64,000 nucleotides of DNA, from contig CANQBI010000001.1 of NCBI GenBank assembly GCA_947589435.1, positions 12,740 through 76,739 on the forward strand. Direction: 5' to 3'. The notes beneath the pieces were generated by a model. It did no database searches, had not been told where the DNA came from, and saw only the letters and a list, made by a program, of their open reading frames with translations. Made by a program: the position numbers and the translations under genes. Below, piece after piece: positions 294 to 63,963 of the stretch; the stretch's first letter is position 1; every line of letters starts with the position of its first letter. The stretch is from an uncultured Bacilli bacterium. Its GTDB lineage: Bacteria; Bacillota_I; Bacilli_A; RF39; UBA660.

Positions 294-1493
294 TTAGGCA
301 TTGCTTGTACTAGTAATTACATATGGACTATCTTCTGTTCCATTACCAACTAGTCCTGTTGTGGATGGTAGATAGAAGACTGGGCGAACCGCAACCGTAT
401 TGTTCACCCAATCGTAGAGCAAGTAGCCGCTCGTAACCACAGCCCACGCACCGTAAGCGCCGCTGCTGCTGAAGTAGCCATACCTAGTCATTGTCCATTC
501 GTATGTACTTCCATATGTTCCTGTTTTTCCGCTCATTGTGTTGGTAATATGCAACCAACTATTGGCGTTTGAACCATAACTCCATGAATTGTAATAATCT
601 CCACCATACATTAATCCTATTTGATATTGCCCCGTTGTTTTTGTTTTTGCTTCCGCTCCACTACTTGTTGCGTTTGTTCTATCTCCTTTCCACCATTTTA
701 CTGCTGGTATTATATTCTTTATTCCTGCGTCTAAAAAACTTCCTCCGTTTATGGCTTTCCTTACTGTGTTGTTGTTATTATCCCAATCTATATTTGTACT
801 ATAGTCTGTTGACCATGCTTGGCTTGTGCTTGTTGGGATTACCTTTATTACTTTTAACATACCTGCTTCTAAACCTAAGTCTTTTTGTTCACTTCCGTCG
901 GTTACGCCAATAATACGATATAAGTATTTATTACTTTCGGCACTTCCACATGTATCAGGATTTAGTGGTCCTCCTATACATACAAAGTTATTTGTTACTT
1001 GGTCTTTTGTTCCCTTGAATCTATATAATCCTTCTACTGCTGTTCTTTTGTCTTTTGTTCCTCCTCCATAATATTGTCCACCTTGGGCATTTAATACTTC
1101 TAAAGCAGGTCTTCCCTTACCAAAATATAAGGTACAATATATTGTCTTTTTAGTTGTTATTGTTGCCGTATTTCTATCTTCGTTAAATGTTACATATTGT
1201 TTTGTATCTCCTACATCAGTTCCACTTGCGTCTTCACATTTTGTTCCGACATATGTATATTGTGCTTTATCAGGCCATTTACTTCTATCTTCTTGTTCAT
1301 ACCATTCAAAGTCATTTTCTCCTCCACTTTGAACTTTTATTGAAAGTGTTTTATCCTTATTATTGAATACATCTACTATTTTAATATCTTCTAAAACTTC
1401 ATTGTCTTTTCTTACACTAAAGTAACTATATCCTTCATATATCATTCCAATAGTTAATATAACTAATATTACATTAAATACTTTCTTTTTCAT
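294..1493 (-). CDS. Secreted/membrane-anchored protein of unknown function. Diverged paralog (about half of residues identical by eye) of the ORF at 62776..63963.
   Basis: N-terminal hydrophobic segment. Motifs shared with the right-end paralog: ATITTKKTIYCTLYF, GRPALEVL, YRIIGVTDG, GLxAGMLKVIK, SQAWS, IGLMY..DYYNSW, AVRPVFYL near the C-terminus. Forms an operon-like pair with 1503..2207. Confidence 0.6.
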   Translation of the reverse strand: MKKKVFNVILVILTIGMIYEGYSYFSVRKDNEVLEDIKIVDVFNNKDKTLSIKVQSGGENDFEWYEQEDRSKWPDKAQYTYVGTKCEDASGTDVGDTKQYVTFNEDRNTATITTKKTIYCTLYFGKGRPALEVLNAQGGQYYGGGTKDKRTAVEGLYRFKGTKDQVTNNFVCIGGPLNPDTCGSAESNKYLYRIIGVTDGSEQKDLGLEAGMLKVIKVIPTSTSQAWSTDYSTNIDWDNNNNTVRKAINGGSFLDAGIKNIIPAVKWWKGDRTNATSSGAEAKTKTTGQYQIGLMYGGDYYNSWSYGSNANSWLHITNTMSGKTGTYGSTYEWTMTRYGYFSSSGAYGAWAVVTSGYLLYDWVNNTVAVRPVFYLPSTTGLVGNGTEDSPYVITSTSNA

Positions 1494-1502
1494 ATTTCCT
1501 CC

Positions 1503-2207
1503 TTAACTTTTATTAAAATATGCATAACATATATTTGGGCCATCTGTTTCAAATGAAAAGCCTTTACTTGTATCATAACTTATCGTTGTTTTAGCATTAT
1601 TTGTAGTATTACAACCAGATATTGTATTATCATATGTATAACCACTTGTTGGTATATCTTCTATCATTGTGTAATGTTTATTATTTTTTATTACCATTCC
1701 TAATGAATCTTCAATTAAAGCAAATACTATTACATCATCTTGGGTTAAATCTTTTCCATAATCATAATATATCCTGCATACCACTTGATTAGGATTATCT
1801 TGTGACATTTCTACAGTTACTAGTCCATCTTCTGAAATAGAATATACTTTTTCTTCATGCATTGTATACGTTCCACTTGTTGGTATGCAATTACTCTTTT
1901 TATCATTTACGACATATCCTGATACTAAAGCAGGTGTTCCTTCCATAATTGTATAATTCTTTGGATTAGTTACATCTTGTACATAAAACATTAAATTAAC
2001 ATCCGTTGTTCTATCAGTTAAAGGAGAAGTATCTCCCTTACCACTAAAGTTTCCTACTCTACTGGTAAATATAGGCACAGGATCTGTTTCACTGCTATAA
2101 TAAGCATAAGTGTTTTTTAAACATATAAATAAAGTTATTACAAAAAGACATATAACAAAATATATAACTTTTATATTTAACAATTTTTTCAATTTTTCTC
2201 TTATCAT
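1503..2207 (-). CDS. Secreted protein with a SipW-cognate (TasA/camelysin-type) signal-peptide motif. Paralog of 62031..62762.
   Basis: TM/signal segment followed by KNTYAYYSSETDPVPIFTS, which resembles the xGTxAxFxD motif next to the SipW cleavage site in TasA/CalY-class proteins. Conserved C-terminus (VVCRIYY, SKGF.F.T.G.NIC..YF) shared with 62031..62762. Confidence 0.55.
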   Translation of the reverse strand: MIREKLKKLLNIKVIYFVICLFVITLFICLKNTYAYYSSETDPVPIFTSRVGNFSGKGDTSPLTDRTTDVNLMFYVQDVTNPKNYTIMEGTPALVSGYVVNDKKSNCIPTSGTYTMHEEKVYSISEDGLVTVEMSQDNPNQVVCRIYYDYGKDLTQDDVIVFALIEDSLGMVIKNNKHYTMIEDIPTSGYTYDNTISGCNTTNNAKTTISYDTSKGFSFETDGPNICYAYFNKS

Positions 2208-2265
2208 TTAACCATTCCTTTATTCAACGTTGCTAATGCCGAAACAAAATTACGCAAAATATTTT

Positions 2266-2328
2266 TAGACAAATATTGTCTATGATATATTTATTTTAGA
2301 ACATTTTTGTCTGAAAATCAATAGACAA
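2266..2328. promoter_or_regulatory. Two inverted-repeat operator-like sites, TAGACAA-N3-TTGTCTA and TTGTCTG-N8-TAGACAA, in the divergent region between the secreted-protein pair and the XRE gene
   Basis: Perfect 7-bp inverted repeats read directly from sequence. Position is consistent with autoregulation by the adjacent HTH protein. Confidence 0.4.
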
Positions 2329-2364
2329 TTTTTAACTATGGTTAAATGTTTACTAGGTGATATT

Positions 2365-2589
2365 ATGAATAGAATTAGAGAAATAAGAGAAGATAAAGAT
2401 TTAACTCAAACTGAGGTGGCTAAAAAAATTGGCATAACTCAAAGAAATTATAGTTACATTGAAACGGGTAGAACAATGCTTACAGAAGATATTTTAGTAA
2501 AACTAGCCGAATTATATAATACAAGTACTGATTACATTTTATATAGAACTGATGAAAGAAAACCATATAAAAAATCAATAGTCAAATAA
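2365..2589 (+). CDS. XRE-family helix-turn-helix transcriptional regulator
   Basis: MNRIREIREDKDLTQTEVAKKIGITQRNYSYIETG is a typical Cro/C1 HTH. C-terminal DYILYRTDER is shared with the XRE genes at 60.8-61.8 kb. The ORF track starts at 2338; the internal ATG at 2365 is more likely. Confidence 0.75.
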   Translation: MNRIREIREDKDLTQTEVAKKIGITQRNYSYIETGRTMLTEDILVKLAELYNTSTDYILYRTDERKPYKKSIVK

Positions 2590-2601
2590 GGAATAATATA
2601 A

Positions 2602-2828
2602 ATGAACATAAATAGATTAAAAGAAATTCGAGAGGACAAAGACTACTCTCAAAAAGATATAGCTAAAATACTTAAAACTACACAACAGCAATATTCAAAA
2701 TATGAACTAGGTATCCAATTAATACCATAGATAGATTATGTATTCTAGCGGATTTTTACAATGTTAGTTTGGACTATTTATTATCAAGAAGTGATGATTG
2801 TAAAATATATTCTAAAACAAAAATATAA
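2602..2828 (+). pseudogene. Frameshifted XRE-family HTH regulator
   Basis: MNINRLKEIREDKDYSQKDIAKILKTTQQQYSKYELG runs into a stop. The C-terminal part IDRLCILADFYNVSLDYLLSRSDD continues in another frame. Confidence 0.55.
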
Positions 2829-2831
2829 TAA

Positions 2832-3128
2832 TTATTTTCTAAAGAATTCTCTTATATCTTCTTCTAAAGCATCTGCTATAAAGCCTAAATAATCTATCGT
2901 TACATGCTTACATCTTTTAGTATTTTCTATGTCACAAATATATTGTCTCGTTCCTCCAATTAAGTCGGCTATATCCTGTTGGGTATAGCCATATTTTTTT
3001 CTTAATCTTTTTAAGTTATTTCTCACAATATTATAATAATATTCTACATCGTGCAAATTATTTTTCATTTTTATATACTTTTCCATTATAAATATATTAT
3101 ATATAACATTTTTTTGTATATATATCAT
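2832..3128 (-). CDS. XRE-family HTH transcriptional regulator (start may be the internal Met at 3086)
   Basis: LKRLRKKYGYTQQDIADLIGGTRQYICDIENTKR HTH motif. Confidence 0.65.
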   Translation of the reverse strand: MIYIQKNVIYNIFIMEKYIKMKNNLHDVEYYYNIVRNNLKRLRKKYGYTQQDIADLIGGTRQYICDIENTKRCKHVTIDYLGFIADALEEDIREFFRK

Positions 3129-3207: not shown

Positions 3208-3510
3208 ATGGAAAATGTATCTAATACTATTAATATGAGTTTTAGAGTTGATAAAACACTTAAAAATGATGCAGATATTTTATTTAAAAAACTTGGACTT
3301 AACACAAGTGTGGCTTTAAACATGTTTTTAAGTCAATGTGTAAGAGAGCAATCATTGCCTTTTGTTCCTTCAATGAATGTAAGCGAAAGTAATAAACCTT
3401 CAAAAAGACTTATTAAAGCTACTAAAGAAGCCGAAGATATTTTATCAGGAAAAATCAAAGTTAAAGGCTATAATAATGTTGATGAGTTTATTAATGATAT
3501 GCTTAAGTGA
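3208..3510 (+). CDS. RelB/DinJ-family ribbon-helix-helix antitoxin
   Basis: MSFRVDKTLKNDADILFKKLGLNTSVALNMFLSQCVREQSLPF matches the DinJ pattern (..K..A..vl..GL.......l.......E..lPF). Its stop overlaps the next ORF's start (GTGA). Confidence 0.7.
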   Translation: MENVSNTINMSFRVDKTLKNDADILFKKLGLNTSVALNMFLSQCVREQSLPFVPSMNVSESNKPSKRLIKATKEAEDILSGKIKVKGYNNVDEFINDMLK

Positions 3511-4076
3511 TTAAAACTTTAACAAAAACAAAGCCAAGAACAAAAGGAACATCAGAAATTAAAAAAGAATTTAAAAATAAAAATACTAATTATTATAATA
3601 TTACACAAGAATGGCTTAAAAAATCTAACCCTAGTACTCCTTCAATTAAAGATGCTATTTCTGTAACAATTAACAACGAAACTTTTATGGTTGGGAAATT
3701 AAATAAAATCATTCATGAAAACAACGAAGTAGAAGTAGCAAAGTGGTTAAGCAAAACCTTTAAAGAAAATATTGAGTATTTGCCAAACATTAAAGAAAAA
3801 GAAGGAATACAATGTGCTGACTATATTTTTAAAAATGAATTTTGGGATTTAAAGGAATTAATTGGTAATGGAAAAAGGACATTAGAAGATGCTATTAAAA
3901 AGAAGAAAAAGCAAGCAAGTAATTTTATAATAGATATAACAAATTCCAAAATGTCAAAAGAAGAACTACTTAAACAAGCAATAAAAATATATAATGGTAA
4001 ATCTTTAAAATGGATTGATAAAATAATATTAAAAAAGAATAATGAATTAATTGCAGTTTTAAAAAGAAAAAAATAG
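3507..4076 (+). CDS. Lys-rich 189-aa protein translationally coupled to the DinJ-like gene. Candidate toxin partner of unclassified family.
   Basis: GTG start overlaps the TGA of 3208..3510. Basic, Lys-rich. No recognisable RelE/YafQ, PIN, Fic or P-loop signature. Followed by a strong hairpin terminator. Confidence 0.5.
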   Translation: MIKTLTKTKPRTKGTSEIKKEFKNKNTNYYNITQEWLKKSNPSTPSIKDAISVTINNETFMVGKLNKIIHENNEVEVAKWLSKTFKENIEYLPNIKEKEGIQCADYIFKNEFWDLKELIGNGKRTLEDAIKKKKKQASNFIIDITNSKMSKEELLKQAIKIYNGKSLKWIDKIILKKNNELIAVLKRKK

Positions 4077-4861: not shown

Positions 4862-5151
4862 TATTTAAATAACTTACTTAGAAGACTTTCTTCTTTATTT
4901 TTCTTCATATTATCCATATAAGCAATACTATATAGTTTACCTTTTATTTTGACATTACCATCATGGGTATCAAGTTTCACTATTTCTAATCCTTCACCTT
5001 TAAGTAAGATAACTCCCATATTAGATTCCATTAAAAATTCTTGGTCATCAAAACTACTTATTTTGCTAATACCAGTTAAATTCATAACACTACGATCTAC
5101 TACTTTTATTTCATGACTACCATAATTATTAACGTATTCGCTCGTCTCCAT
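4861..5151 (-). CDS. yabP: Sporulation protein YabP
   Basis: VMNLTGISKISSFDDQEFLMESNMGVILLKGEGLEIVKLD is the YabP beta-barrel signature. Position fits synteny. Confidence 0.75.
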   Translation of the reverse strand: METSEYVNNYGSHEIKVVDRSVMNLTGISKISSFDDQEFLMESNMGVILLKGEGLEIVKLDTHDGNVKIKGKLYSIAYMDNMKKNKEESLLSKLFK

Positions 5152-5217
5152 AAGTCCTCCTAGAAAAGTATATGAAAGAGGCCATAAATTTAGTCATAAA
5201 AAAAGTAGGTTTCCCTA

Positions 5218-5496
5218 CTATTTTTCTTCTTCTTCAACTGGTGTTGGATTATTGTATTCTTCTAAAATTTTTGATTCAAACATTTCTCTTGTTTCTGCAT
5301 TAGTTGGATGAACGATGTCTTCAAATTTATCATCATTTACTTTACGACTTGGCATAGCGCAAAATAATCTGTTTTCTCCTTCTATAATTCTAATATTGCT
5401 TACAACAAAGCAATCGTCGATAGTAACAGTAGCATAACCTTTAAGTCTTGAGCCCTCTCTATCAACTTTGTGAACACGTACTCTTGTGATTTCCAT
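5218..5496 (-). CDS. spoVG: Septation protein SpoVG
   Basis: MEITRVRVHKVDREGSRLKGYATVTIDDCFVVSNIRIIEGENRLFCAMPSRK is near-identical to the SpoVG consensus. Confidence 0.9.
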   Translation of the reverse strand: MEITRVRVHKVDREGSRLKGYATVTIDDCFVVSNIRIIEGENRLFCAMPSRKVNDDKFEDIVHPTNAETREMFESKILEEYNNPTPVEEEEK

Positions 5497-5616
5497 AAAA
5501 CACACTCCTTATCTTGAAATACTCACAATTTAATTTTAAAACAATCTTGTCATTTTTTCAACAATTTTATTAATTATTTCTTAATTTTTTGTGAATTATT
5601 TCTCTGAATAGCTAAT

Positions 5617-5832
5617 TTAACTTAAAAATTTTATCTTTATATCCCCAGTTATATACTCATTATAAGTAAAACTTTTTTCGTTTCCTTCATACAAAATGGT
5701 AAAAATATTCGGATAAGTTTTATAAAGAATACCTTCGTATTTGGATATTTTATTTCTAAGGCCATACACAGTTACCACAACTTTCCGATTTAAATTACTT
5801 TCAATTTTATTTTTCACAATATCTATATTCAT
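5617..5832 (-). CDS. veg: Veg protein (biofilm/sporulation-associated small protein)
   Basis: IESNLNRKVVVTVYGLRNKISKYEGILYKTYPNIFTI is typical Veg. Conserved position between yabG and spoVG. Confidence 0.8.
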   Translation of the reverse strand: MNIDIVKNKIESNLNRKVVVTVYGLRNKISKYEGILYKTYPNIFTILYEGNEKSFTYNEYITGDIKIKFLS

Positions 5833-6614
5833 TATCTTGGATACCCCACATACATAAGACCATTACCCATAATGCCACCCATACCATCTTTACCATATTT
5901 GGTTTTCTCTAAAGTACTTTTTAAATCAACTTCTTTATTTCTTTCGGTAAGAGCGATAGTAACGGCAATAATCGCGGGATCTAGGGCATGAATATTGACT
6001 CTTTTAGGACTTGAGGCAAAGTTAGCTCCCGCCATAATTAATTCTTCATAATTACTTTGACAAGCACCCGCAATAATAACTAACTTCTCATGACTTTTTT
6101 CATAATTGCGCGCCGCTTTTACGGCTTTAATAAAATTCTTGGTATTCTTATAATTTTCATTATCTTTAATACTACCTTTTTTCTTATAATAGGCATCATG
6201 ACCTGTAATAATTAAAATATCCGGCTTATATTCTTTTAATAAAAGTCCTACTTGTTCATACATATCTTCTTCTTTAATCTTTTTCCCGATGGCGTATACT
6301 CCTTCACTTTTATAAAACTTTAAACATTTATCTAAGTATTCACTATCTCCATCTATATGTAGTATTTTCCCTGGTAAGTAAAAATAATCATCTTTAACAA
6401 TATCTTTAGTGCCTCTTTCTCCTTTAAAGAAATCATCTTCTCTTGGTTTTTCACATTTTACTAAATCGGAAAAAGGACTATCCGCATATAGTCTTACTTC
6501 TACCCCTTTTAAATAATATAAACCATCTTTTATACTTATAACCTTAAAGACCGTATCATGATTATAACTTTTTCTGGTTACAAAATCCCCTTTATTAATT
6601 TCCAAACATATCAC
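5832..6614 (-). CDS. yabG: Sporulation-specific protease YabG
   Basis: Size and conserved blocks (ILIITGHDAY, LVIIAGACQSNYE) fit YabG. Synteny ksgA-yabG-veg. Confidence 0.7.
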   Translation of the reverse strand: MICLEINKGDFVTRKSYNHDTVFKVISIKDGLYYLKGVEVRLYADSPFSDLVKCEKPREDDFFKGERGTKDIVKDDYFYLPGKILHIDGDSEYLDKCLKFYKSEGVYAIGKKIKEEDMYEQVGLLLKEYKPDILIITGHDAYYKKKGSIKDNENYKNTKNFIKAVKAARNYEKSHEKLVIIAGACQSNYEELIMAGANFASSPKRVNIHALDPAIIAVTIALTERNKEVDLKSTLEKTKYGKDGMGGIMGNGLMYVGYPR

Positions 6615-6676
6615 CAGTAAATTTTATGAATAAATATTAATTTTATGCTTATAAAGGGCTTTAACTAAAGACTTAT

Positions 6677-7720
6677 TTGCAAATGCTTCTGTTTTATGTT
6701 ATCATAATTGCTAATTTAAGGGGGTTCATTTTTATGACAAATTTAACAAAGTATGAAAAAAATTTAAAAAAAGCCCAAAATGCCGATAAAATAGTTTATT
6801 ACGATTATATACAATATAAAAGAGCAGCTGGATGGTGGTCAGGATTACATAGTGATGATTGGCATCGACCTAATATAATTAAAAAAGCAAGATATAATGG
6901 TACATTTTTACAAAAATTGCCTCAATATTATTTTTTAGGATTTCCAATAAAAGAATTACTAAAAGAAAATTATTCTAATGGCTACTGTCATGCTTGTGCT
7001 GTTGCCTTAAGTTTATATTTTAAAGATTTTGAAATAATAACTTGCAATTTACAAAATTATGCAGAATATTATACAAAGAAATCAGGAAGAAAAACAGATT
7101 ATGAGCATACATTTTTATTAATTGATTTAAATAACAATAAAACGGTAATAGATACAACATTTGGCTTTATTACTGACTTCGAAACTTATAAGAAAATATT
7201 TAATCCAAATAATATTAGAATTATAACTTCGGAACAACTAAAAAAAGTAAAACCATATCAATTTATAAAATCATTAAAAGACTATTCTGGTGCACCACTT
7301 GGATTTAATGAAGTATACGACGAGGAAAAACAAAAATGGCATCCAAATGAGGAAGCCCAAAAACATCAAAGAATTATGCAAGAATATATGAATATGTGTC
7401 AAAATTATAACAACACTCAAAATCCTCATTTAACGGATTTTATTAACAGATGTTTATTTAAAACTTCTAATAGTGAGTGCCTTTGGCTTTGGAGACTTGA
7501 TTTAAGTCACAAGGAAGTAGGTAATACAAAGTTTGACTATCCAAAAACAAATTTATTTTCTTTAGAAGATGATGAATATGATGAAAATCTATATAGCCCT
7601 TATGAAGATACTACTTCTATAAATGAACAAGTACTACTTAGTTATCATAACCTAGAGAGCAATATTACCCCTAATGTAAAAATTAGAGTTCGCAACTTTA
7701 TAAATAAAATAAAAATATAA
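6677..7720 (+). CDS. Hypothetical protein with a possible Cys-His-Asp papain/transglutaminase-like core (start probably the internal Met near 6734)
   Basis: GYCHACAVALSLYF followed by YEHTFLLI and IDTTFG, spaced like a Cys, His, Asp triad. Transcribed against the local replication direction. Confidence 0.3.
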   Translation: MQMLLFYVIIIANLRGFIFMTNLTKYEKNLKKAQNADKIVYYDYIQYKRAAGWWSGLHSDDWHRPNIIKKARYNGTFLQKLPQYYFLGFPIKELLKENYSNGYCHACAVALSLYFKDFEIITCNLQNYAEYYTKKSGRKTDYEHTFLLIDLNNNKTVIDTTFGFITDFETYKKIFNPNNIRIITSEQLKKVKPYQFIKSLKDYSGAPLGFNEVYDEEKQKWHPNEEAQKHQRIMQEYMNMCQNYNNTQNPHLTDFINRCLFKTSNSECLWLWRLDLSHKEVGNTKFDYPKTNLFSLEDDEYDENLYSPYEDTTSINEQVLLSYHNLESNITPNVKIRVRNFINKIKI

Positions 7721-25883: not shown

Positions 25884-26297
25884 TTAATCACGTAAATTTT
25901 TAAAAAAGTTATCAATTAGTTTTTGATATTTTAATTTTAATCTATTACAAATATTTGTTTGTTTAAATATATGATTATCTTTATTTTGATTTAATAGATA
26001 ATAAACATTATTTATTCGACATTCTTTGATTATCATTTCACACATTTTGCAAGGTTCTAAAGTAACGTACATATCACAATCATTAAGACGCCAATCTTTT
26101 AATTTTTTTTCCGCCTTTTGAATTGCTTTTATTTCAGCATGACCAAGCACATTACATTTTTTTTGGCGATTATTAAACGCCTTACTAATTATTTTATTAT
26201 CTTTAACTATAACAACTCCCACCGGGATTTCCTTCTTTTTGTAAGCTTTTAAAGCTTCTTTATAAGCTTGTTCCATATATTCTATCAACATTATCAT
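25884..26297 (-). CDS. tadA: tRNA-specific adenosine deaminase TadA
   Basis: HAE and PCxxC zinc-binding motifs (LGHAEIKAI ... LEPCKMC). The ORF-track N-terminal extension (GTG at 26318) overlaps the SRP RNA 3' end, so a later Met is the likely start. Confidence 0.8.
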   Translation of the reverse strand: MIMLIEYMEQAYKEALKAYKKKEIPVGVVIVKDNKIISKAFNNRQKKCNVLGHAEIKAIQKAEKKLKDWRLNDCDMYVTLEPCKMCEMIIKECRINNVYYLLNQNKDNHIFKQTNICNRLKLKYQKLIDNFFKNLRD

Positions 26298-26304
26298 CTC
26301 CACT

Positions 26305-26385: not shown

Positions 26386-26424
26386 AGATAATAACATATT
26401 TATTTGTATTATGCAAATTATGTT

Positions 26425-34873: not shown

Positions 34874-36229
34874 TTATAACTTTGATTTAATATCTTTTAA
34901 CAAGTTATCTAAATTATGATTATTTTTTAAATCATTTTTGATTTTCTCACAACTAGCTACAACTGTGGAATGATCTCGGCCTCCAAATTCTAAACCAATT
35001 TTAGCTAGATTTTCTTCGGTTTCTATTCGACATAAGTACATGGCAATATGTCTGGGTCTTGCAATATTATTACTTCTTCTTTTACTTTTTAAATCCTCAA
35101 CAGTTATTTTAAAGTAATCAGCCACCACTTTTTGAATATGGGATATCGTATTTTCTTGATATATATTGGTACTTACATAATCTTTTAAAGCTTCGACCGC
35201 AAAATCTAAGTTAATAACCTCGGGAGCCATCATGGCGGTATAAGCAAGTAATCTATTAATAGTGCCTTCAATGTGTCTTACATCATTCGGACAAGCATTA
35301 GCAATATATTCGATAACATCTTTATTTATCTTATCTTTAATTGAAGAATTTTTTAATTTCTGTTTAATTATTTCACATCTTAGTTCAAATTCCGGTGGAC
35401 AAATATCTACCGGAAGTCCCCAGGCAAACCGACTTTGGAGTCTTTCCTCAATCTTTTTTAAATCATCCGGGCTCCGGTCACTCGATATAATAATCTGTTT
35501 ATTGGCTTGATTTAAAGCTTCAAAAGTGTGGAAAAATTCTTGTTGAGTTTTCTCTGCTCCCACTAGAAACTGGATATCATCGATGATTAAGACATCAACA
35601 TTGCGATATTTATTTTTAAAGTTATTGGCATATTGAATACTTTCTTTGCCATTTTCCATCTTGGAAATACCCGTATATTCATCCCTAAAATCACTACTGG
35701 TAGTATATAAAACTTTTTTATTGGAATGTTCTGTTATATAGTTACCTATTGCATGCATTAAATGCGTTTTCCCAAGACCACTTCTTCCATATATAAATAA
35801 AGGATTCCTTGTTGTTCCCGGAGCTTGAGCCACATTCATTGCGGAAATAAAGGCTAGTCTATTGGATTCTCCCACTACAAAGTTATCAAAATTAAGGTTA
35901 GGATTTAAATTCGTATTCCACTCGATTGTTTGATATTCTTCCTCAATTGCTTCTTCTAAAGTTTTATTATTTTCTTCTTGGATTTCTTCATCGGTTAAAA
36001 ATTTAAAATTATAATTAATTCCTGTTAAGGAATATAAAGTATCATTAAGTAAATCAATATATTGTAATTTAAGTATTTGTTTATGAATCGCTAAAGGTAC
36101 TTTGATAACAATATCTTTGTCATCCATACTGATAAGTTCTAAACCCTTAAACCAGGTGGCAAAAGAAGTTGGACTTACATCTTGTTCAAGTTCTTTTAAC
36201 AAATCTTTAAATACATCTTGAGTTTTCAA
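34874..36229 (-). CDS. dnaA: Chromosomal replication initiator DnaA
   Basis: GRSGLGKTHL Walker A. AAA+ box VII. C-terminal DNA-binding helix (RPRHIAMYLCR, GGRDHSTV). Confidence 0.95.
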   Translation of the reverse strand: MKTQDVFKDLLKELEQDVSPTSFATWFKGLELISMDDKDIVIKVPLAIHKQILKLQYIDLLNDTLYSLTGINYNFKFLTDEEIQEENNKTLEEAIEEEYQTIEWNTNLNPNLNFDNFVVGESNRLAFISAMNVAQAPGTTRNPLFIYGRSGLGKTHLMHAIGNYITEHSNKKVLYTTSSDFRDEYTGISKMENGKESIQYANNFKNKYRNVDVLIIDDIQFLVGAEKTQQEFFHTFEALNQANKQIIISSDRSPDDLKKIEERLQSRFAWGLPVDICPPEFELRCEIIKQKLKNSSIKDKINKDVIEYIANACPNDVRHIEGTINRLLAYTAMMAPEVINLDFAVEALKDYVSTNIYQENTISHIQKVVADYFKITVEDLKSKRRSNNIARPRHIAMYLCRIETEENLAKIGLEFGGRDHSTVVASCEKIKNDLKNNHNLDNLLKDIKSKL

Positions 36230-57037: not shown

Positions 57038-57265
57038 ATGAGTGTTAGTTTTAATGAGTATGCTTGTTTAGAGTGTGGAACAAGACAAATTTTTCCTGTT
57101 AAGAATAGCGCTAAAGTTGGGGTAGTTAATGAGGCTTTTTGCTTTAAATGTGAAAGAAGAACAAAACATGTTCATGTGGGAGACATTAAAACATTTTTAG
57201 AATTAGATAATTCTGGAAAAAATGAAGAATATCGGAAAGTATTAAAAAAGAAATATGATAGATAA
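57038..57265 (+). CDS. Small zinc-ribbon protein between prfA and prmC
   Basis: CLECG ... CFKCERR four-Cys pattern. 75 aa. Overlaps the prmC start. Confidence 0.5.
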   Translation: MSVSFNEYACLECGTRQIFPVKNSAKVGVVNEAFCFKCERRTKHVHVGDIKTFLELDNSGKNEEYRKVLKKKYDR

Positions 57266-57995
57266 TTATGATGTAGAGTTATTAAAAAAATATTTACCTA
57301 AAGAAAAATTTGAAGAAGGATTAAAAAAGTTAAAAAGTGGTTATCCAGTCCAATATATTATTGGCAATGTAGATTTTTATAATTTAAATATTTTAGTTAA
57401 TGAAAATGTGTTAATACCAAGATTTGAAACTGAATACTTAGTAGATAAAACTATTAAGTATTTAAAGAAATTAAATCTAAGTAATCCTAAAATATTAGAA
57501 ATAGGTACTGGTAGTGGGTGTATTAGTATTGCTTTAAAGAAAAATATCGAATGTGAGATTATCTCCATTGATATAAGTAAAGAGGCTTTAGATTTAGCTA
57601 ATATTAATGCTAAAAATAATAATGTTGATATTAACTTTATTAATGAAGATATTAATAATTATGAAGATGATAATAAATATGATTTAATTATTAGTAATCC
57701 TCCTTATGTCCCATATAATTCCGAAGTATCTGATAAGATAAAATATGAACCAGAGAGGGCTATCTTTGCAAAAGATAATGGATTATATTTTTATAAAGTT
57801 ATTTTAGAAAGATTAAAAGATAATTTAAAAGAAGATTATTTAATAGCTTTTGAAATAGGAGATAAAGAAGGAAGTAAGATAAAAGAACTTGCATCAATTT
57901 ATTTAAATAATTCTTATGTTTTAATAGAAAAAGATTATAATAATTATGAAAGATATGTATTTATATCTAATAAAGAAATAATAAGTATAGATTAA
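57255..57995 (+). CDS. prmC: Release factor glutamine methyltransferase PrmC/HemK
   Basis: EIGTGSGCIS SAM motif and NPPYV catalytic motif. Confidence 0.9.
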   Translation: MIDNYDVELLKKYLPKEKFEEGLKKLKSGYPVQYIIGNVDFYNLNILVNENVLIPRFETEYLVDKTIKYLKKLNLSNPKILEIGTGSGCISIALKKNIECEIISIDISKEALDLANINAKNNNVDINFINEDINNYEDDNKYDLIISNPPYVPYNSEVSDKIKYEPERAIFAKDNGLYFYKVILERLKDNLKEDYLIAFEIGDKEGSKIKELASIYLNNSYVLIEKDYNNYERYVFISNKEIISID

Positions 57996-58111
57996 TTTTT
58001 ATACTTTTTTGTTGAGTCATTTTAATTATATATCACAAACAAATGAATGTCAATACATATTTTCGCACACTAAACATTTTTAGATTAATTATTTTTAAAA
58101 CTTTAACAAAA

Positions 58112-58290
58112 ACTAGCAAAAAAGTAGACGAAACTAGCAAAAATCTAGCAAAAATCTAGCAAAAACTAGCAAAAAACTAGCAAAACTAGCAAAAAAGCGG
58201 CGAAAAATATCTAAAAGCGGCAAAAAAGCGGCAAAAAAGCGGCAAAAAGTATTCAAAAGCGGCGAAAAAGCAGCAAATTTTTGCCGCTTT
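58112..58290. repeat. Two adjacent 10-11-bp tandem repeat blocks, about 7 copies of (A)CTAGCAAAAA(A) then about 6 copies of GCGGC(A/G)AAAAA, ending in a GCGGC...GCCGC hairpin
   Basis: Read directly. A5-6 tracts recur with about 10-11 bp periodicity over about 170 bp. No ORF. Confidence 0.8.
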
Positions 58291-58327: not shown

Positions 58328-59542
58328 CTAAAATTCACTACCTAGTAAGAAATCAATTAAATTTAAATGAATAATACCATCTCTAGATAAGTCTTCTTTA
58401 TCTAAAGAAATAACATATTTAGGATAGTTATCTTGAATATCTTTAAAGGCCCCAAATTCTCTTTCTATTACTTCTTTATTATCTTTTATTTCATAAGTAA
58501 CTTGAATATATTTAGTTTCTTCATCTTTTTTGGCAATAAAGTCTATTTCACCTTTTTTAGTTTTACCAACATAGACAGTATAGTTTCTATTGATAAGTTC
58601 ATTATAAACAATATTTTCTAAGATAATATAATTTTTAAATTCGGGATTATTAACTTTTATTTGGGCAATACCTAAATCAGTTGCATAATATTTATTTAAA
58701 GTTTTTAAGACCCCTTTACCATTTAAATCATTACGATATACTTTTCTAATAATTAAAGCTTTACATAAAGCATCTATATAAATATATAATGTTTCATTAG
58801 ATATTTTTTTATATTCTTTACTTAAATATTTAATAATATTATCTGCGGAAAATTCTCTACCCATTGTTTCAATTAAATATTGGAGTATTTTATCAAATAG
58901 AAAAGTATCTTTTAAATTAAGCCTTTTAACAACATCTCTTAAGATAATTGAGTCATATACACTATGTAAATAGTTTTTAATATCCGTTTCATTTGTAAAT
59001 TCACATCTATTAGGTAGTCCTCCCCATTTAGCATAATCCCAAAATGTATTTAAGTCATTTCCATCTTTTTTAGTTAAAGAAATATATTCTTTATATGATA
59101 GAGGATTTATATTAAATAAAACATATCTTCCGGATAAATCAGAAGATAATTCTTCAGATAATAACTTACTATTAGAACCCGTTAAAAATATACTTATATT
59201 TTTAACGGAAGCCCTTAAGGAATTAATTACTTTTTCAAAGTTATCAACATTTTGAATTTCATCTAAAAAGACATAGTATATTTTATCATCTTTAATTTGC
59301 TCCTTAATATATTTATTTAGTTTTTTATAATCAGTTAACTCTTCATATTCAATAAATTCAAAGTTAATATTAATAATATGATCATTACGAATTTTTTTCT
59401 TAGTGGTAAGTTCATCTATTATTTGATTTAAAATAATAGATTTACCACATCTTCTTATTCCTACAAGTATTTTAATTAAATTAGAATCATAAAACCCTCT
59501 AATTTTAGATAAATAGTCCTCTCTTATAAGCATAATATTCAC
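58328..59542 (-). CDS. COG1373-type AAA ATPase with C-terminal DUF4143 domain
   Basis: Walker A GIRRCGKS. Walker B-like VFLDEIQ. 404 aa. Paralog of the disrupted gene at 15.4-16.5 kb. Confidence 0.7.
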   Translation of the reverse strand: MNIMLIREDYLSKIRGFYDSNLIKILVGIRRCGKSIILNQIIDELTTKKKIRNDHIININFEFIEYEELTDYKKLNKYIKEQIKDDKIYYVFLDEIQNVDNFEKVINSLRASVKNISIFLTGSNSKLLSEELSSDLSGRYVLFNINPLSYKEYISLTKKDGNDLNTFWDYAKWGGLPNRCEFTNETDIKNYLHSVYDSIILRDVVKRLNLKDTFLFDKILQYLIETMGREFSADNIIKYLSKEYKKISNETLYIYIDALCKALIIRKVYRNDLNGKGVLKTLNKYYATDLGIAQIKVNNPEFKNYIILENIVYNELINRNYTVYVGKTKKGEIDFIAKKDEETKYIQVTYEIKDNKEVIEREFGAFKDIQDNYPKYVISLDKEDLSRDGIIHLNLIDFLLGSEF

Positions 59543-59582
59543 CTCAATAACTATTATATATTATTATTCATTATTTGTAAAG

Positions 59583-59654
59583 TTATTACGTTTAACCGTA
59601 ATAACTTTCAAAAATTAAGAATTATTACGTTTGAGTGTAATAATTTCTTTGTAT
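59583..59654. promoter_or_regulatory. Two related palindromic operator-like sites, TTATTACG-N6-CGTAATAA and ATTATTAC-N8-GTAATAAT, in the 5' region of the AAA ATPase gene
   Basis: Read directly: 59583..59604 and 59631..59654. 8-bp perfect arms. Confidence 0.45.
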
Positions 59655-59798
59655 ATAATAGAAAAATAGAGCATCTACCAGTTATGATAGATGCTCAATA
59701 CCGTCTATTTTGGACTGAGAATATCTAATATAAATTAGACATCTCTTTTCCTTACATAAATATTATATACTAATTTTAATTATATATGCAATACATAT

Positions 59799-60758
59799 CT
59801 ATTTTAATATATATTTTGTGCTAGGGCCATTTCCTATTTTACTAATAATATTATTATCAGTCATTTTGTTTAATATTATGGAAGTTGTGGTTTTTTCTTT
59901 ATTTATTAACTTTTCGGCTTCTTTTCTGGTTACTTCATTATGACTATTTAAATAATTAATAATTGTTTTTTCTTCCTTATTATCATCATCATTTTCTATT
60001 AAAGTTATTCTGGGAAGCTTAACAACAAATGAAGCTGGTAGGGCATTAATTTCTAAATTTAAATTAATATTTTTATAATATTCATTTACCCTTTTTAAAC
60101 CACTTCCGATTGCTTCAACTCTTTTTAAACGCATAAATATAGCTTGTAAATAAGGATTTCTTGATGTTGATAGGCCTGCAAGGGCATCTTCAATTGTTAT
60201 ATTTCCATATAAAGAACCATAACTAATAAATTCTATACCTTCATCTTTATATATATTTATAATATTAGAAGTAATCGTGGAATAATCTCTATGGATTAAA
60301 GAATTTAAAATAATTTCTCTTAAAACAAATTCAGGATATTCCTCTATATCTTTTCTTATTGAATTATCTATTAAGCCATAAGTTGCCGAATTAAGTTTTA
60401 AATAAGTTAAAGCATTATCATATATTTCTAATAATGAACCACTAAATTCTTTTCTATCTAAAAAATTAGTTTTAGAAGTTGATTCATAAGAAGCAACTTT
60501 TATAGTAAATGGATTTTGGTCAGATAGTAAAAGTGCTAAATTAGTATATTGGTCTTGTTCATTTTTTAAATGTAAATTCTTTTTAATACTATTATCATTA
60601 ATATCAATATTAACTTCATTAAAAGCATCTTTAATATAATTAAATGTTAATTGTTGATTTATAGATACTGTAGTTTCATATTTAATATTTGCATAAATTT
60701 CTTTATATAACTTTTCAATATATTTTTGATTATAATCAATATTATCATTCATAAACAA
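59799..60758 (-). CDS. AlbA_2 (Schlafen-like) plus HATPase_c_4 domain protein (often annotated transcriptional regulator or RecG-like C-terminal domain)
   Basis: C-terminal block RNPYLQAIFMRLKRVEAIGSGLKRV is characteristic of HATPase_c_4. Terminal wHTH-like tail. Confidence 0.55.
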   Translation of the reverse strand: MFMNDNIDYNQKYIEKLYKEIYANIKYETTVSINQQLTFNYIKDAFNEVNIDINDNSIKKNLHLKNEQDQYTNLALLLSDQNPFTIKVASYESTSKTNFLDRKEFSGSLLEIYDNALTYLKLNSATYGLIDNSIRKDIEEYPEFVLREIILNSLIHRDYSTITSNIINIYKDEGIEFISYGSLYGNITIEDALAGLSTSRNPYLQAIFMRLKRVEAIGSGLKRVNEYYKNINLNLEINALPASFVVKLPRITLIENDDDNKEEKTIINYLNSHNEVTRKEAEKLINKEKTTTSIILNKMTDNNIISKIGNGPSTKYILK

Positions 60759-60854: not shown

Positions 60855-61307
60855 TTACTTTCTCTTATGAGGAACTCTTTCATCTGTTAAATATAAAATA
60901 TAATCAATAGGAACATTATAATATAAAGCTAATTTTATTAATTTATAAACCGGAATGTTTTTAGCACCAGTTTCATATTCGGCATAACCATTTCTACTCA
61001 TATCTAAGACTTTGCCTATATCTTCTTGAATTAAATCTCTATCTTCTCTAATTTCTTTAAGTCTATTCATATTATAATTAGTATGATATATTTTAGAAGG
61101 TTTATATTCGCATTTTATTTGAGTAAGTCCTAATAAATAGTCTATAGATACTTTAAAATAATTAGCAAAATCTTTTAATTTATTTAAAGGTATGGCTCTT
61201 TTTTCAGTTTCATACCTTGAATAATTAATTTGACTAATTTTTAAATCTTCAGAAATATTTTTTTGAGAAATGTTTTTCTCTTTTCTTAACACTTTTAATC
61301 TGTTCAT
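60855..61307 (-). CDS. Tandem double-HTH XRE-family regulator
   Basis: Two Cro/C1 HTH units. C-terminal DYILYLTDERVPHKRK. Confidence 0.75.
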   Translation of the reverse strand: MNRLKVLRKEKNISQKNISEDLKISQINYSRYETEKRAIPLNKLKDFANYFKVSIDYLLGLTQIKCEYKPSKIYHTNYNMNRLKEIREDRDLIQEDIGKVLDMSRNGYAEYETGAKNIPVYKLIKLALYYNVPIDYILYLTDERVPHKRK

Positions 61308-61361
61308 AAAAAAATTATATAAAACATGATAAAAGTTGTTAATTGTATGTCGCTTTAAGGC

Positions 61362-61826
61362 TTAAATAAAATTTATTTTTCTTTTATGAGGTATTCTTTC
61401 ATCAGTTGCGTATAATATATAATCAATAGGAACATTATAAAATAAAGCAAGTTTAATTAATTTATTAATAGGTATATCATTGGCGCATCTTTCAATTTCT
61501 TTATAACCACTTCTTGTAATACCTAATATATTTCCAACGTCTTTTTGAAGTAAGTCTTTATCTTCTCTTATATCTTTTAATCTAGTCATATTAGAATTTA
61601 TTGGGATAATTTTAGATTCGGGATATTTAGTAATAATATCAGTTAAACCTACTATACAATCAATTGATGTATTAAAATATCTAGCAAATTTTTTTAATGT
61701 AATAGTGGACATAGTTCTTTTTTCAGTTTCGTATTGCGAATATCCATTTTGACTTATATTTAAATCATTAGCAATTTCTTTTTGTGATAAATTTCTTGCT
61801 TTTCTTAATGTTTTTAAATTATTCAT
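61362..61826 (-). CDS. Tandem double-HTH XRE-family regulator (paralog of 60855..61307)
   Basis: Two HTH units. C-terminal DYILYATDERIPHKRK. Confidence 0.75.
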   Translation of the reverse strand: MNNLKTLRKARNLSQKEIANDLNISQNGYSQYETEKRTMSTITLKKFARYFNTSIDCIVGLTDIITKYPESKIIPINSNMTRLKDIREDKDLLQKDVGNILGITRSGYKEIERCANDIPINKLIKLALFYNVPIDYILYATDERIPHKRKINFI

Positions 61827-62030
61827 ATTTAAATCACACTAAAATTATACATAGGCATTATTTGAGATATTGATTTATGGCATAAGTTGAGATATAATAT
61901 AAATATAATATATACCAATAAGCGACTTAATTGGAATATTTTATTTGTATTTTTATTTCGGTATTTATAACAATTGTATAATTTATTTAAATATAACAAA
62001 TAATAAAAATAAATAAGAAAAGGGAAGTAT

Positions 62031-62762
62031 ATGATTAAAGAAAGACTAGAAAAATTAAAACATTTAGAACATAAAGAAGTCTATTTATTAGTGGGTTTTA
62101 TTATTTTAGCATTAGTCTTAATATTAATTAAAAATATTATTAAGAATACTTATGCTTATTATAATTATGAAACAGATCCAGTACCTATATTTACTAGTAA
62201 AGTAGGTAACTTTAGTGGTAAAGGAGATACTAGTCCTTTAGATCAACCATCAGATGTTAATGTTTTATATTATATTCAAAATGGATTAGATTTAAAGAAG
62301 TATGATGTGTATGATACTCCACCTTTAGATGTTAAAAGTAATTATGTATTAGATGAAAAAAGAAGTAATTGTATTCCAACTGATGGAAAGTATGAAATGG
62401 ATGGAGATAAAACATATTCTATAAAAGAAGATGGAACAGTAACAGTAAAAATATCACAAGATAAACCAAAACAAGTAGTATGTAGAATATATTATAGTTT
62501 TAACTTAACACCATATGAAGAAAAAGATGGAGATGTAAAAGTAATAATTTACTTACAATCTGACACTGGTGATATTGTAACTGTAAGGAACAATAAATAT
62601 TACATCTTGGGAGATACAGTGCCAGAAGGTTATGAAATGGCTGATTATGAATGTAATAATACAAATATAGCAACAGAAGTAAATTATGATTCAAGTAAAG
62701 GGTTTACTTTTAAAACAACAGGAAAGAATATATGTCATACATATTTTGATAAAACTAGTTAA
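62031..62762 (+). CDS. Secreted protein with a SipW-cognate-type signal-peptide motif. Paralog of 1503..2207.
   Basis: TM segment then KNTYAYYNYETDPVPIFTSKVGNFSGKGDTSPL, near-identical to the left-end paralog. Conserved C-terminus. Confidence 0.55.
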   Translation: MIKERLEKLKHLEHKEVYLLVGFIILALVLILIKNIIKNTYAYYNYETDPVPIFTSKVGNFSGKGDTSPLDQPSDVNVLYYIQNGLDLKKYDVYDTPPLDVKSNYVLDEKRSNCIPTDGKYEMDGDKTYSIKEDGTVTVKISQDKPKQVVCRIYYSFNLTPYEEKDGDVKVIIYLQSDTGDIVTVRNNKYYILGDTVPEGYEMADYECNNTNIATEVNYDSSKGFTFKTTGKNICHTYFDKTS

Positions 62763-62775
62763 GGAGGAACATTAA

Positions 62776-63963
62776 ATGAAGAAAAGAATATTTGTATATG
62801 GATTAATTCTAATAACAATAGGGGTAATTGTTTTTGAAGGTTATTCTATTGTAAATATGGTTAATAATCATAAAAATAAAGTATTACAGGATATCAAAAC
62901 AGTAGATATATTTGAAAATAAAGATAAAGCCTTATCTATAATGATTCAGCAACCAGATTATAGTTATAAAGAAGACACAAGTAGAACAGCATGGCCAAGT
63001 ACAAGTGAATATTTATATTCAGGAGCTAAGTGTACATACCAGGATGGAAGTGAAATAGTTGATACAGGACAATATATAAGTTTTGAAGAAATAAGTCATA
63101 CAGCAACAATCACAACCAAGAAGACAATATACTGTACATTATACTTTGCCAATGGAAGACCAGCCTTAGAAGTATTAAAAGCAACAAATGATAATACATA
63201 TGCCGGAGGAGGACAACATACAACAGTAGTAGAAGGATTGTATAGATTTAAAGGAGATTACGATAAAGTATTAAATAACTATATATGTTTAGGAGCATAT
63301 GAAAATCCAGAAAAATGCAAAACAAATGCCAATAATATGTATAGAATAATAGGGGTAACAGACGGAACAGAAGAAAGTACGCTAGGATTAAAAGCAGGGA
63401 TGTTAAAAGTAATAAAGGCAACACCATCAAATACAAGCCAAGCATGGTCAAGTAGTGGTAACTACGATTGGGATAATACAAATGCAACAGCAAGAAAATA
63501 CCTAAATGACACATTCTATACAGGAAATACAATAGATGCAAGAATAAAACCATACATAGCAGAAGTAAATTGGTGGAAAGGAGACAATGAAGGTTCATGG
63601 CTAACTCCTCCAACATCAGAAACAAAGACAAAAACAACAAGTCAATATAGGATAGGCTTAATGTATGCAAGTGATTATTATAACTCATGGACATATAGTA
63701 GTAGTGGAAATACAAATAGTTGGTTAGATATAACACATGGATTAAGTAGTAGTTCAACATATAGTAATTACATTGAATGGACAATGACTAAGTATGGCTC
63801 AAGCTATGCGTGGTATGTGCGTGCAGACGGCGCCTTGCTCTGGAATAATATCAATGTGACCAATGCGTATGCGGTTCGCCCAGTCTTCTATCTGTCATCC
63901 ACAGCAGGGCTAATAGGATTTGGAACTGAACAACAACCTTATACAATAACAACTATTAAATGA
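62776..63963 (+). CDS. Secreted/membrane-anchored protein. Paralog of 294..1493.
   Basis: Shares ATITTKKTIYCTLYF, GRPALEVL, YRIIGVTDG, GMLKVIK, YRIGLMY.SDYYNSW and AVRPVFYL blocks with 294..1493. Confidence 0.6.
   Translation: MKKRIFVYGLILITIGVIVFEGYSIVNMVNNHKNKVLQDIKTVDIFENKDKALSIMIQQPDYSYKEDTSRTAWPSTSEYLYSGAKCTYQDGSEIVDTGQYISFEEISHTATITTKKTIYCTLYFANGRPALEVLKATNDNTYAGGGQHTTVVEGLYRFKGDYDKVLNNYICLGAYENPEKCKTNANNMYRIIGVTDGTEESTLGLKAGMLKVIKATPSNTSQAWSSSGNYDWDNTNATARKYLNDTFYTGNTIDARIKPYIAEVNWWKGDNEGSWLTPPTSETKTKTTSQYRIGLMYASDYYNSWTYSSSGNTNSWLDITHGLSSSSTYSNYIEWTMTKYGSSYAWYVRADGALLWNNINVTNAYAVRPVFYLSSTAGLIGFGTEQQPYTITTIK

Follow-up and report, generated by a model that had tools for sequence, protein, structure and literature searches.

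A multi-copy, recombining gene cassette of uncultured gut Bacilli that may encode a two-subunit surface complex with a lectin-like head

What are the two related gene pairs that lie on either side of the replication origin of an uncultured Bacilli bacterium, and what might their products do? The pairs stand at the two ends of a 64-kb stretch of DNA (contig CANQBI010000001.1, positions 12,740 to 76,739; hereafter the window), and each consists of a gene for a smaller protein followed by a gene for a larger one, here termed the small and the large gene. A first-pass annotation of the window had described them as inverted, diverged secreted-protein modules with XRE-family regulators, left by an old duplication or by a rearrangement symmetric about the origin, and had noted a motif of the SipW/TasA class in the small protein. 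In this study we favour, with moderate confidence, a different reading, namely that each pair belongs to an XRE-controlled, hypervariable, multi-copy cassette for a two-subunit cell-surface binding complex with a lectin-like head of the DUF6273 type. The genes concerned, with one signal beside them and one landmark, are as follows:

294..1493, minus strand: left large gene, 399 amino acids (aa), called as an open reading frame (ORF)
1503..2207, minus strand: left small gene, 234 aa, ORF call, with no Pfam or NCBIfam family
62031..62762, plus strand: right small gene, 243 aa, ORF call and BLASTP match to the left copy
62776..63963, plus strand: right large gene, 395 aa, ORF call and BLASTP match to the left copy
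243..274, minus strand: intrinsic-terminator-like hairpin (14-bp stem, then a T run) 20 nt past the left large gene, at the end of the two-gene transcription unit
34874..36229, minus strand: dnaA, outside the cassettes and listed as origin context only

Two members of a large, dispersed family

Formal alignment revealed the two pairs to be diverged, collinear paralogs in opposite orientation. The large proteins share 52% identity (BLASTP E=2e-121, 399 versus 395 aa) and the small proteins 47% (E=7e-69, 234 versus 243 aa), in good agreement with the earlier estimate that about half of the residues are identical, and the coding blocks of the left and right pair are 67% identical at the DNA level across 1.87 kb. 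Both copies retain the small-then-large order, with intergenic gaps of 9 and 13 nt. Since the similarity reaches into the XRE genes (68% DNA identity over 222 nt between the left XRE gene and the second helix-turn-helix domain of the gene at 61362..61826), the duplicated unit comprises the regulator, the small gene and the large gene. The G+C content of the cassette coding regions is 0.30–0.33, compared with 0.22–0.27 around them (window positions 1–2000 and 62001–64000).

The two pairs do lie on both sides of the origin, as had been proposed: the cumulative GC skew reaches its minimum at approximately 36 kb and switches at approximately 36.3 kb, just beyond dnaA, with dnaA and dnaN read from the minus strand and rnpA and yidC from the plus strand. 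The distances given earlier, approximately 34 kb to the left and approximately 26 kb to the right, are correct, although the symmetry that was read into them is only rough. Similarly, the modules point away from the origin, but nearly every long ORF in the window does likewise.

A scan of one genome per species yielded 147 relatives, of which the 78 loci that were kept were examined. Homologs proved to be rare: 5.8 billion clusters contained 111 large and 48 small ones, none of them with a name in the match lists; the clusters of six family proteins that were looked up were all without a name, and a HMMER scan of 1.84 billion representatives returned only 107 relatives. No description of this cassette family was found in the papers searched that mention DUF6273. 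All relatives reside in metagenome-assembled genomes (MAGs) of uncultured 'Bacilli bacterium' from rabbit, goat and one other gut data set. The first-pass annotation had proposed to compare related genomes for single or double copies beside the origin; the best 80 stretches contained at least 16 large genes in each of two MAGs and at least 21 in a third. Among the MAGs nearest to the window, 36 loci have the small gene immediately upstream of the large one, and all-against-all clustering of neighbouring genes identified only the XRE, small and large families as recurring at cassettes. Given these many dispersed copies, the window pairs are two members of a large dispersed family, and not the outcome of one duplication or of an origin-centred inversion.

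The latter idea, an isolated ancient duplication whose copies were placed symmetrically by an inversion centred on the origin, would account for inverted copies at 34 kb and 26 kb from it. That the duplication is old is upheld by the 67% DNA identity, XRE neighbours included; the rest of the proposal is scarcely credible, in view of the 16 or more copies per related genome, the positional conservation of both window loci in sister genomes, and an orientation that just follows the leading-strand bias of the window. Furthermore, the cassettes of other species occur elsewhere, at window-equivalent 48.5 kb (locus L037) and, directly after a methyltransferase gene, at 58 kb (locus L027). In L037 a complete small-large cassette (4950–7184) stands between a parB-like gene and the next gene (window-equivalent 48.44–48.59 kb); the window has no cassette at this site, which lies only approximately 12 kb from the origin.

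Domain architecture of the two proteins

The AlphaFold model of the left large protein, built with 78 homologs (predicted local distance difference test score, pLDDT, 86; predicted template modelling score 0.80), displays an N-terminal helix (aa 2–26), an immunoglobulin (Ig)-like beta-sandwich (approximately aa 37–126) and a globular alpha/beta head (approximately aa 130–395). In Foldseek searches the fold of the head matched that of the Thomasclavelia ramosa IgA peptidase 9qa6 (E=3.5e-4, probability 1.0), followed as second-best match in the Protein Data Bank (PDB) by the C-terminal domain of Legionella Lcl (8q4e, E=0.035), and it also matched classical C-type lectins and viral (gut phage) DUF6273 proteins (E=6.5e-8 to 2e-4). 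The part of 9qa6 that matches, its N-terminal domain, has been described as a C-type-lectin-like domain (PMC12237041) and labelled DUF6273 (PMC12402451), and DUF6273 heads constitute the tips of phage 'tentaclins', which are diversified by diversity-generating retroelements (DGRs) (PMC10743442). The Pfam profile of DUF6273, PF19789, was found on the right large protein at aa 211–374 with 18.5 bits (E=0.002), below its gathering score of 23.5 bits, and the Pfam search gave no PF19789 match on the left one. As 25 of the 78 aligned members of the large family match this profile at E<=0.01 (best 2.6e-10), membership of DUF6273 would hold for the window proteins by transitivity; the C-type-lectin-like fold is common to the modelled head and to known DUF6273 domains in Foldseek. 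A PDB sequence search with the large and small family profiles returned chance-level matches only (E>=0.05).

The AVRPVFYL...G.GTE..PY block at the C-terminus of the large protein, previously singled out as conserved, was found to contain seven residues that are invariant in the 78 homologs (R370, P371, F373, L375, G383, G385 and P390). Conservation further extends to the end of the stalk and the first part of the head, and the most variable residues (226–285 and 316–360) map to loops of the head. Pairwise ratios of nonsynonymous to synonymous substitution (dN/dS) range from 0.15 to 0.5 overall and rise to 0.7–0.9 in aa 301–350 (50-codon windows, maximum 0.9), which is suggestive of relaxed or diversifying selection on this part of the head. 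No conserved cleavage site or TasA-like motif was identified at the N-terminus of the large protein across the family, and the N-terminal helix is therefore read as a putative uncleaved membrane anchor. The description of both modules as secreted is thus an oversimplification, given the unconserved, uncleaved-looking anchor of the large protein.

Known DUF6273 proteins (the 9qa6 N-terminal domain, phage tentaclins and Mtd-like DGR targets) resemble the large head in fold and end in the same V-R-P-x-F/L strand, and those of phages vary in surface loops, as the large head does. In contrast to these systems, the large protein is chromosomal and apparently membrane-anchored, with a novel Cys-pair Ig-like stalk and a second-protein partner; it is diversified by cassette recombination among paralogs, with no reverse transcriptase or template repeat, and its head sits on neither a peptidase nor a phage tail. 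The relationship to phage proteins nevertheless raises the possibility that the cassettes are prophage remnants, with receptor-binding or superinfection-exclusion proteins beside CI/Cro-like XRE repressors, as DUF6273 heads are typical of gut-phage receptor-binding proteins (PMC10743442) and the RstR family of phage repressors gives the XRE genes their highest score. We consider such an origin very improbable: tblastn searches with both proteins against 50,697 phage records yielded no matches, phage structural, integrase and reverse-transcriptase genes are not among the recurrent neighbours of the cassettes, no DGR-type template/variable repeat was detected, and both proteins possess predicted membrane-targeting N-termini, which tail fibres lack.

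The left small protein was modelled with moderate confidence (pLDDT 73) as a helix (aa 2–31), an unstructured segment (aa 31–57) and two beta-sandwich (Ig-like) domains. Its leader comprises n- and h-regions (aa 1–32), after which come the T33-Y-A35/Y-Y37 site and a conserved segment (aa 36–66). The key element of this region is the following:

2019..2111, minus strand: codons 33–63 of the left small gene, the most conserved stretch with the putative signal-peptidase site (T-x-A-Y-Y...PVPIFTGKVGNFxGKGDTSPL)

The entropy of this stretch is 0.2–0.8 bits, compared with 1.2–1.9 elsewhere in the protein. The TYAYY..ETD segment reported in the first-pass annotation is thus confirmed and falls within the best-conserved stretch, with T33, A35 and Y37 invariant in the family, H or Y at P2 and Y or F at P1'. 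The pattern [STAV]-x-A followed by [YF]-Y, directly after a hydrophobic stretch, is kept in approximately 55 remote homologs, and in the right small protein cleavage is predicted after A42 (NTYA/YY). As a small residue at -3, any residue at -2 and Ala at -1 correspond to the signal-peptidase I rule, cleavage of the small protein at the T-x-A site is judged likely.

The corresponding site of TasA (GGGTWA/AFND) is handled by the endoplasmic reticulum (ER)-type peptidase SipW and poorly by the P-type LepB of E. coli, the aromatic P2' residue being the feature that makes TasA a poor LepB substrate (PMC10269814). With a small P3 residue, Ala at P1 and aromatic residues around them, the small family resembles TasA at the level of the site (T-aromatic-A with aromatic P2'), but the proposed membership of the SipW/TasA class was not borne out. 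Neither window protein matched Pfam PF12389/Peptidase_M73 or the NCBIfam TasA models at E<=1, and none of the 47 members of the small family matched TIGR04088 or the NCBIfam TasA models even at E<=10; among ten remote homologs, one (P0182) reached 13.6 bits with TIGR04088 (E=0.058), for which the cutoff is 19 bits. A sipW-type signal peptidase, for which a search had been suggested, was not encountered: no ORF of the window or of 81 related loci contains an S26-type signal-peptidase catalytic motif, and no signal peptidase or sortase is recurrently linked to the cassettes in the loci examined. One remote homolog stands beside a sortase/SpaA pair on the opposite strand, an arrangement that is not conserved.

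The Ig-like domains of the small protein contain conserved Cys pairs (C107/C144 and C199/C227), and a Cys...Cys-x-x-Y-F signature is common to these sandwiches and to the stalk domain of the large protein. The Ig domain of the large protein and the first Ig domain of the small protein align with a probability of 73% in hhalign (E=3e-5), and their profiles also cross-match. The presence of invariant Cys pairs in every predicted outside domain of both proteins fits an extracytoplasmic location. Foldseek searches of the PDB with the small model gave weak matches of the Ig/cadherin type (probability <=0.13, top 50); TasA, which has a jelly-roll fold, was absent from these 50 matches.

These properties bear on the model of the first-pass annotation, in which the cassette would build a matrix or fibre of the TasA/TapA kind that depends on SipW: an ER-type peptidase would cut the small protein, and the N-terminus thus exposed (YY..PVPIFTGKVGNF) would serve as the donor strand by which subunits polymerise into a fibre, with the large protein as anchor or adhesin and the XRE protein as a SinR-like repressor. 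The T-(H/Y)-A/(Y/F)-Y leader end indeed mirrors the T-W-A/A-F of TasA, aromatic P2' included (PMC10269814); camelysin and BsaA are grouped with TasA in this comparison. Conservation in the small protein peaks in the segment after the cleavage site, which the monomer model leaves disordered, in keeping with a donor strand, and the only NCBIfam match of P0182 is to TIGR04088. In Bacillus the tapA-sipW-tasA operon is controlled by SinR, an XRE-type repressor, which the XRE gene beside the present operon recalls. We nonetheless regard a fibre module as unlikely, given the failure of all TasA-related profiles, two predicted Ig-like sandwiches in place of a jelly-roll, the lack of a linked signal-peptidase gene in the window and the 81 related loci, and a large protein that is devoid of the motif and appears to be a membrane-anchored, lectin-like partner. 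Additionally, the presence of at least 16 diverged, hypervariable copies per genome and their rapid allelic replacement are unlike matrix-fibre operons.

Cassette replacement at fixed loci and the XRE regulators

For each window locus, a sister genome contains an equivalent at the same position, with flanks that are nearly identical. At locus L007, the counterpart of the right locus, the upstream sequence is 93–100% identical to that of the window from the AAA_14 gene across the two XRE genes and the intergenic region into the first ~100 nt of the small gene, and the sequence downstream of the large gene is 91–100% identical; the cassette between them is 53–80% identical to the right copy of the window and 62–93% to the left type. 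The 5' switch falls within small-gene codons ~30–62, in the conserved leader motif (the region matched by codons 33–63 of the left small gene), and the 3' switch at the stop codon of the large gene. At locus L021, which is syntenic with the left locus, the flanks are 89–98% identical and the cassette 46–78%. Diverged cassette bodies between near-identical flanks demonstrate that cassettes are replaced by recombination at fixed loci, and in both L007 and L021 the regulator stays in place while the body is swapped. Between cassettes in general, DNA similarity is usually lost in the two variable head-loop regions.

An intragenomic donor of the L007 cassette was sought among the fetched loci but none was identified, the best other locus being only 80–82% identical; the incoming alleles may stem from another paralog or from another strain. 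Two other routes to variation were considered and discarded. A DGR mechanism found no counterpart in the form of a direct or template repeat of the head-coding region within 4–6 kb, nor does any reverse transcriptase family recur near the cassettes. As regards simple-repeat phase variation, the only array reported by Tandem Repeats Finder is a 13-nt, 2.7-copy, AT-rich one in the leader of the right small gene (62120–62153); no homopolymer or invertible switch was found at the cassettes, and the left cassette is without any tandem array.

The regulatory genes and regions of the two window loci are as follows:

2338..2589, plus strand: left XRE-family helix-turn-helix (HTH) gene, 83 aa, tail TDYILYRTDERKPYKKSIVK, Pfam HTH_3 E=1.4e-17
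2602..2730, plus strand: truncated XRE fragment of 42 codons ending at a premature stop, immediately behind the left XRE gene
2832..3128, minus strand: second-type XRE HTH gene, 98 aa, of a type recurring near cassettes (11 members in 9 loci)
60855..61307, minus strand: right XRE gene B, 150 aa, two HTH domains, tail DYILYLTDERVPHKRK, HTH_3 E=8e-24 in two stretches
61362..61826, minus strand: right XRE gene A, 154 aa, two HTH domains, tail DYILYATDERIPHKRK, divergent from the right small gene
2208..2337, no strand: left divergent intergenic region, with a sigma-70-like promoter at 2321..2293 (minus strand) and the perfect palindrome TAGACAATATTTGTCTA at approximately 2266–2282
61827..62030, no strand: right divergent intergenic/promoter region, between XRE gene A and the right small gene

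The assertion that XRE genes adjoin both pairs and share a C-terminus was confirmed, as the genes at 2338..2589, 61362..61826 and 60855..61307 match HTH_3 (E=1e-17 to 8e-24) and all three products end in (T/I)DYILYxTDERxP(Y/H)K. The four window regulators score 63.9, 30.1, 83.8 and 82.6 bits with HTH_3 (PF01381), above the cutoff of 23. A four-fold HTH repeat is seen at the DNA level at right gene B, and the fragment at 2602..2730, similar to the first part of the second HTH domain in the right genes, is probably a decayed second regulator copy. Beyond the window, a divergent XRE gene lies within ~300 bp of the cassette in 22 of the 30 loci with enough upstream sequence; approximately 13 of these 22 genes encode the DY(I/L)(L/I)..TD.R.P(Y/H) tail, and the number of XRE units per cassette varies from one to four. 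Four tandem single-HTH XRE genes lie divergently upstream of the fused gene P0160 (495 aa) in locus L085 (3709–7480), and the 381-aa gene that follows P0160 is, by size and position, probably a large gene.

The palindrome TAGACAATATTTGTCTA, which is also present at the syntenic locus L021, is a candidate XRE operator. G/C-containing palindromes with arms of at least 7 bp were found upstream of 14 of 33 small genes, where 8 +/- 2.3 would be expected by chance, and they differ by locus (e.g. TAGACAATATTTGTCTA at the left locus and TAACCAACAAATTGTTGGTTA in L014). They are in keeping with, and hint at, control by each XRE protein of its own divergent promoter.

Possible pairing of the small and large proteins and the proposed complex

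Fourteen proteins were matched by both the small and the large family profiles and thus represent fusions, in which the leader is joined directly to the lectin-like head (P0216, P0202 and P0044) or the domains follow one another as leader-head-Ig-Ig (P0160 and P0167), leader-fn3 repeats-head (P0072, P0223 and P0231) or leader-Ig-Ig-...-head (P0249). Furthermore, across 20–29 cassettes the leader of the small protein covaries with the membrane helix of the large protein (r=0.69 by alignment and 0.81 pairwise; Mantel 0/2000), and the Ig domains of the small protein covary with that of the large one (r=0.57–0.65), whereas adjacent segments of different classes correlate weakly (r=0.15–0.31). Leader and helix 'types' recur together in different genomes. 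In L007 the helix of the large protein is of the type matching the resident leader, though the Ig domains flanking the helix on both sides belong to the other type. Were linkage the only cause, the reverse would be expected, which argues for co-adaptation. We infer from these sequence correlations that the two N-terminal helices, and the Ig domains, may contact each other or a common partner; such contacts would hold matching partners together in cells with many paralogs. A 'locus genealogy' behind the covariation was rejected: the XRE gene that adjoins the leader correlates with it at only r=0.15, and the L007 helix, although of the right-like type, is just 72% identical to the right copy of the window and hence no resident remnant.

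In the family consensus, a conserved Glu (aa 20, in I-x-E-x-Y) marks the outer end of the membrane helix of the large protein, and a conserved Lys (aa 31–32) immediately precedes the T-x-A site in the small protein. These two residues could form an ion pair at the membrane surface.

The arrangement that we favour may be pictured as follows. Each cassette, consisting of a divergent XRE regulator (one to four HTH units) and a two-gene operon, would encode a large protein held in the membrane by its uncleaved N-terminal helix, which displays an Ig-like stalk and lectin-like head outside, and a small protein exported by a leader with a TasA-like T-x-A/aromatic-aromatic end, its two Ig-like domains being homologous to the stalk. 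The two would form a cognate surface pair, with leader or transmembrane helix set against transmembrane helix and Ig domain against Ig domain, and the variable head loops (aa 226–285 and 316–360) would bind an external ligand, be it a host or dietary glycan or another cell. The 16 or more diverged copies per genome would be diversified by recombination of the cassette body, with regulator, promoter and flanks left in place, and the local XRE protein would probably repress or switch its own cassette through locus-specific palindromes. We entertain only tentatively a bolder version, a surface-variation system of dozens of XRE-switched expression units, each with a cognate two-subunit receptor whose helices and Ig domains are matched among at least 16 paralogs per cell, whose heads are exchanged between loci or strains at the leader motif and the 3' end, and in which TasA-like, ER-type processing releases or activates the small subunit.

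Of this picture, the paralogy, domain architecture, copy number, cassette replacement, gene fusions and covariation are shown by the analysis, whereas exposure at the surface, cleavage of the leader, physical contact between the partners, binding of a ligand and control by the XRE proteins are steps that we infer. Several observations weigh against the proposal. In more distant MAGs the large gene occurs alone among housekeeping genes, and pairing is therefore not obligatory for the lectin-like protein. A leader that tracks the transmembrane helix of its partner would be awkward if it were merely cleaved and discarded, and the pLDDT 73 model of the left small protein leaves the conserved segment unstructured. 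Averaged pairwise dN/dS is below 1 everywhere, which does not demonstrate positive selection on the large protein; the enrichment of upstream palindromes is modest (z ~2.6). Lastly, the mosaic loci derive from metagenome assemblies, in which chimeric joins at conserved segments are a caveat, although such an artefact would have to leave a flank and return to it at a second join; three independent contigs (99.6–100% identity) reproduce the arrangement of the window itself.

The same hypervariability would also suit polymorphic self/non-self (kin) recognition or contact-dependent competition, in which matched pairs of hypervariable surface proteins would let cells recognise one another and replacement would be driven by social or competitive selection and not by pressure from host or phage. 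The hypervariable cassettes within conserved flanks, the tightly co-adapted pair, the many alleles per genome and neighbours including a RelB/CdiA_C pair and AAA_14/DUF4143 and Schlafen-like genes could all be read in this manner. It appears quite improbable, however, as Pfam and NCBIfam detect no toxin, nuclease or immunity domain in either protein, the neighbours are not conserved across loci, and the lectin-like head is a generic binding module.

With a variable surface-binding complex as the working model, the cassette may be compared with two further systems. Lcl of Legionella pneumophila (8q4e, with a DUF1566-type C-type-lectin-like domain) is, as proposed for the large protein, a surface adhesin with a C-type-lectin-like head. 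That head binds host glycosaminoglycans according to work cited in PMC12237041. The two heads are only 14% identical over the Foldseek structural alignment, and Lcl, unlike the cassette, has a collagen-like stalk, is trimeric and is encoded by a single-copy gene. Mycoplasma Vlp, Vsa and MgPa are multigene families of variable surface proteins diversified by recombination. Like the cassettes, they combine many paralogs in a small, AT-rich genome of the Bacilli class with a conserved N-terminal export region, a variable exposed region, mosaic alleles and replacement at fixed loci. Conversely, the cassette proteins are not lipoproteins, no simple-repeat or invertible-promoter switches are present, and every copy forms a full two-gene operon accompanied by an XRE gene of its own, not a silent cassette feeding one expression site. 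The cassette is a previously undescribed form of variable surface-protein families and C-type-lectin-fold binding proteins, in an uncultured lineage.

If the proposal is correct, a sizeable part of the coding sequence in these small-genome uncultured gut Bacilli serves a set of lectin-like surface receptors that is reshuffled by recombination; in a genome of 1–2 Mb, 16 or more cassettes of ~2.5 kb each would take up a few percent. This would imply strong, fluctuating selection on the surface from host glycans or IgA, phages or neighbouring cells, and would provide a set of candidate adhesins for bacteria that have so far resisted cultivation. The family also connects three previously unlinked things, namely the DUF6273 fold, a TasA-like leader and per-locus XRE regulators, and the covariation of leader and transmembrane helix offers a testable case of partner specificity among paralogous membrane-protein pairs.

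The surroundings of the cassettes were also inspected. AAA_14/DUF4143 ATPase and Schlafen-AlbA_2/HATPase_c_4 genes stand beside several cassettes in different genomes (window 58328–60758, minus strand; L003 2818–4272; L085 1417–2673; L035 207–1443), which suggests that cassettes sit in small, defence-island-like variable regions. On the left of the window, the gene for a RelB antitoxin and one whose product has a CdiA_C toxin-like domain (PF18451) overlap (3208–4076, plus strand), and this toxin-antitoxin-like pair lies between the left cassette and a conserved divIC/yabQ/yabP/spoVG block. On the right, the gap past the methyltransferase gene (57255–57995) is occupied by dense 11-nt tandem arrays at 58097–58277, with 8.5 copies of AAAAACTAGCA and then AAAAGCGGCAA. 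These arrays mark the exact end of synteny with L027 and L037 and the start of a variable island that comprises AAA_14/DUF4143, HATPase_c_4, two XRE genes and the cassette.

Rfam and transfer RNA (tRNA) scans gave no match near the cassettes, and the latter identified no tRNA genes in the 64-kb window. The sole Rfam family at gathering threshold in the window is the bacterial small signal recognition particle RNA (RF00169, 55 bits) at 26297–26390 on the minus strand. Between dnaA and rnpA, at the origin itself, lies a 620-aa ORF (36607–38469, plus strand) with no Pfam match at E<=1e-5 and no obvious signal peptide; its C-terminal half consists of leucine-rich-repeat-like units, and it contains a 132-nt tandem repeat at 37901–38153.

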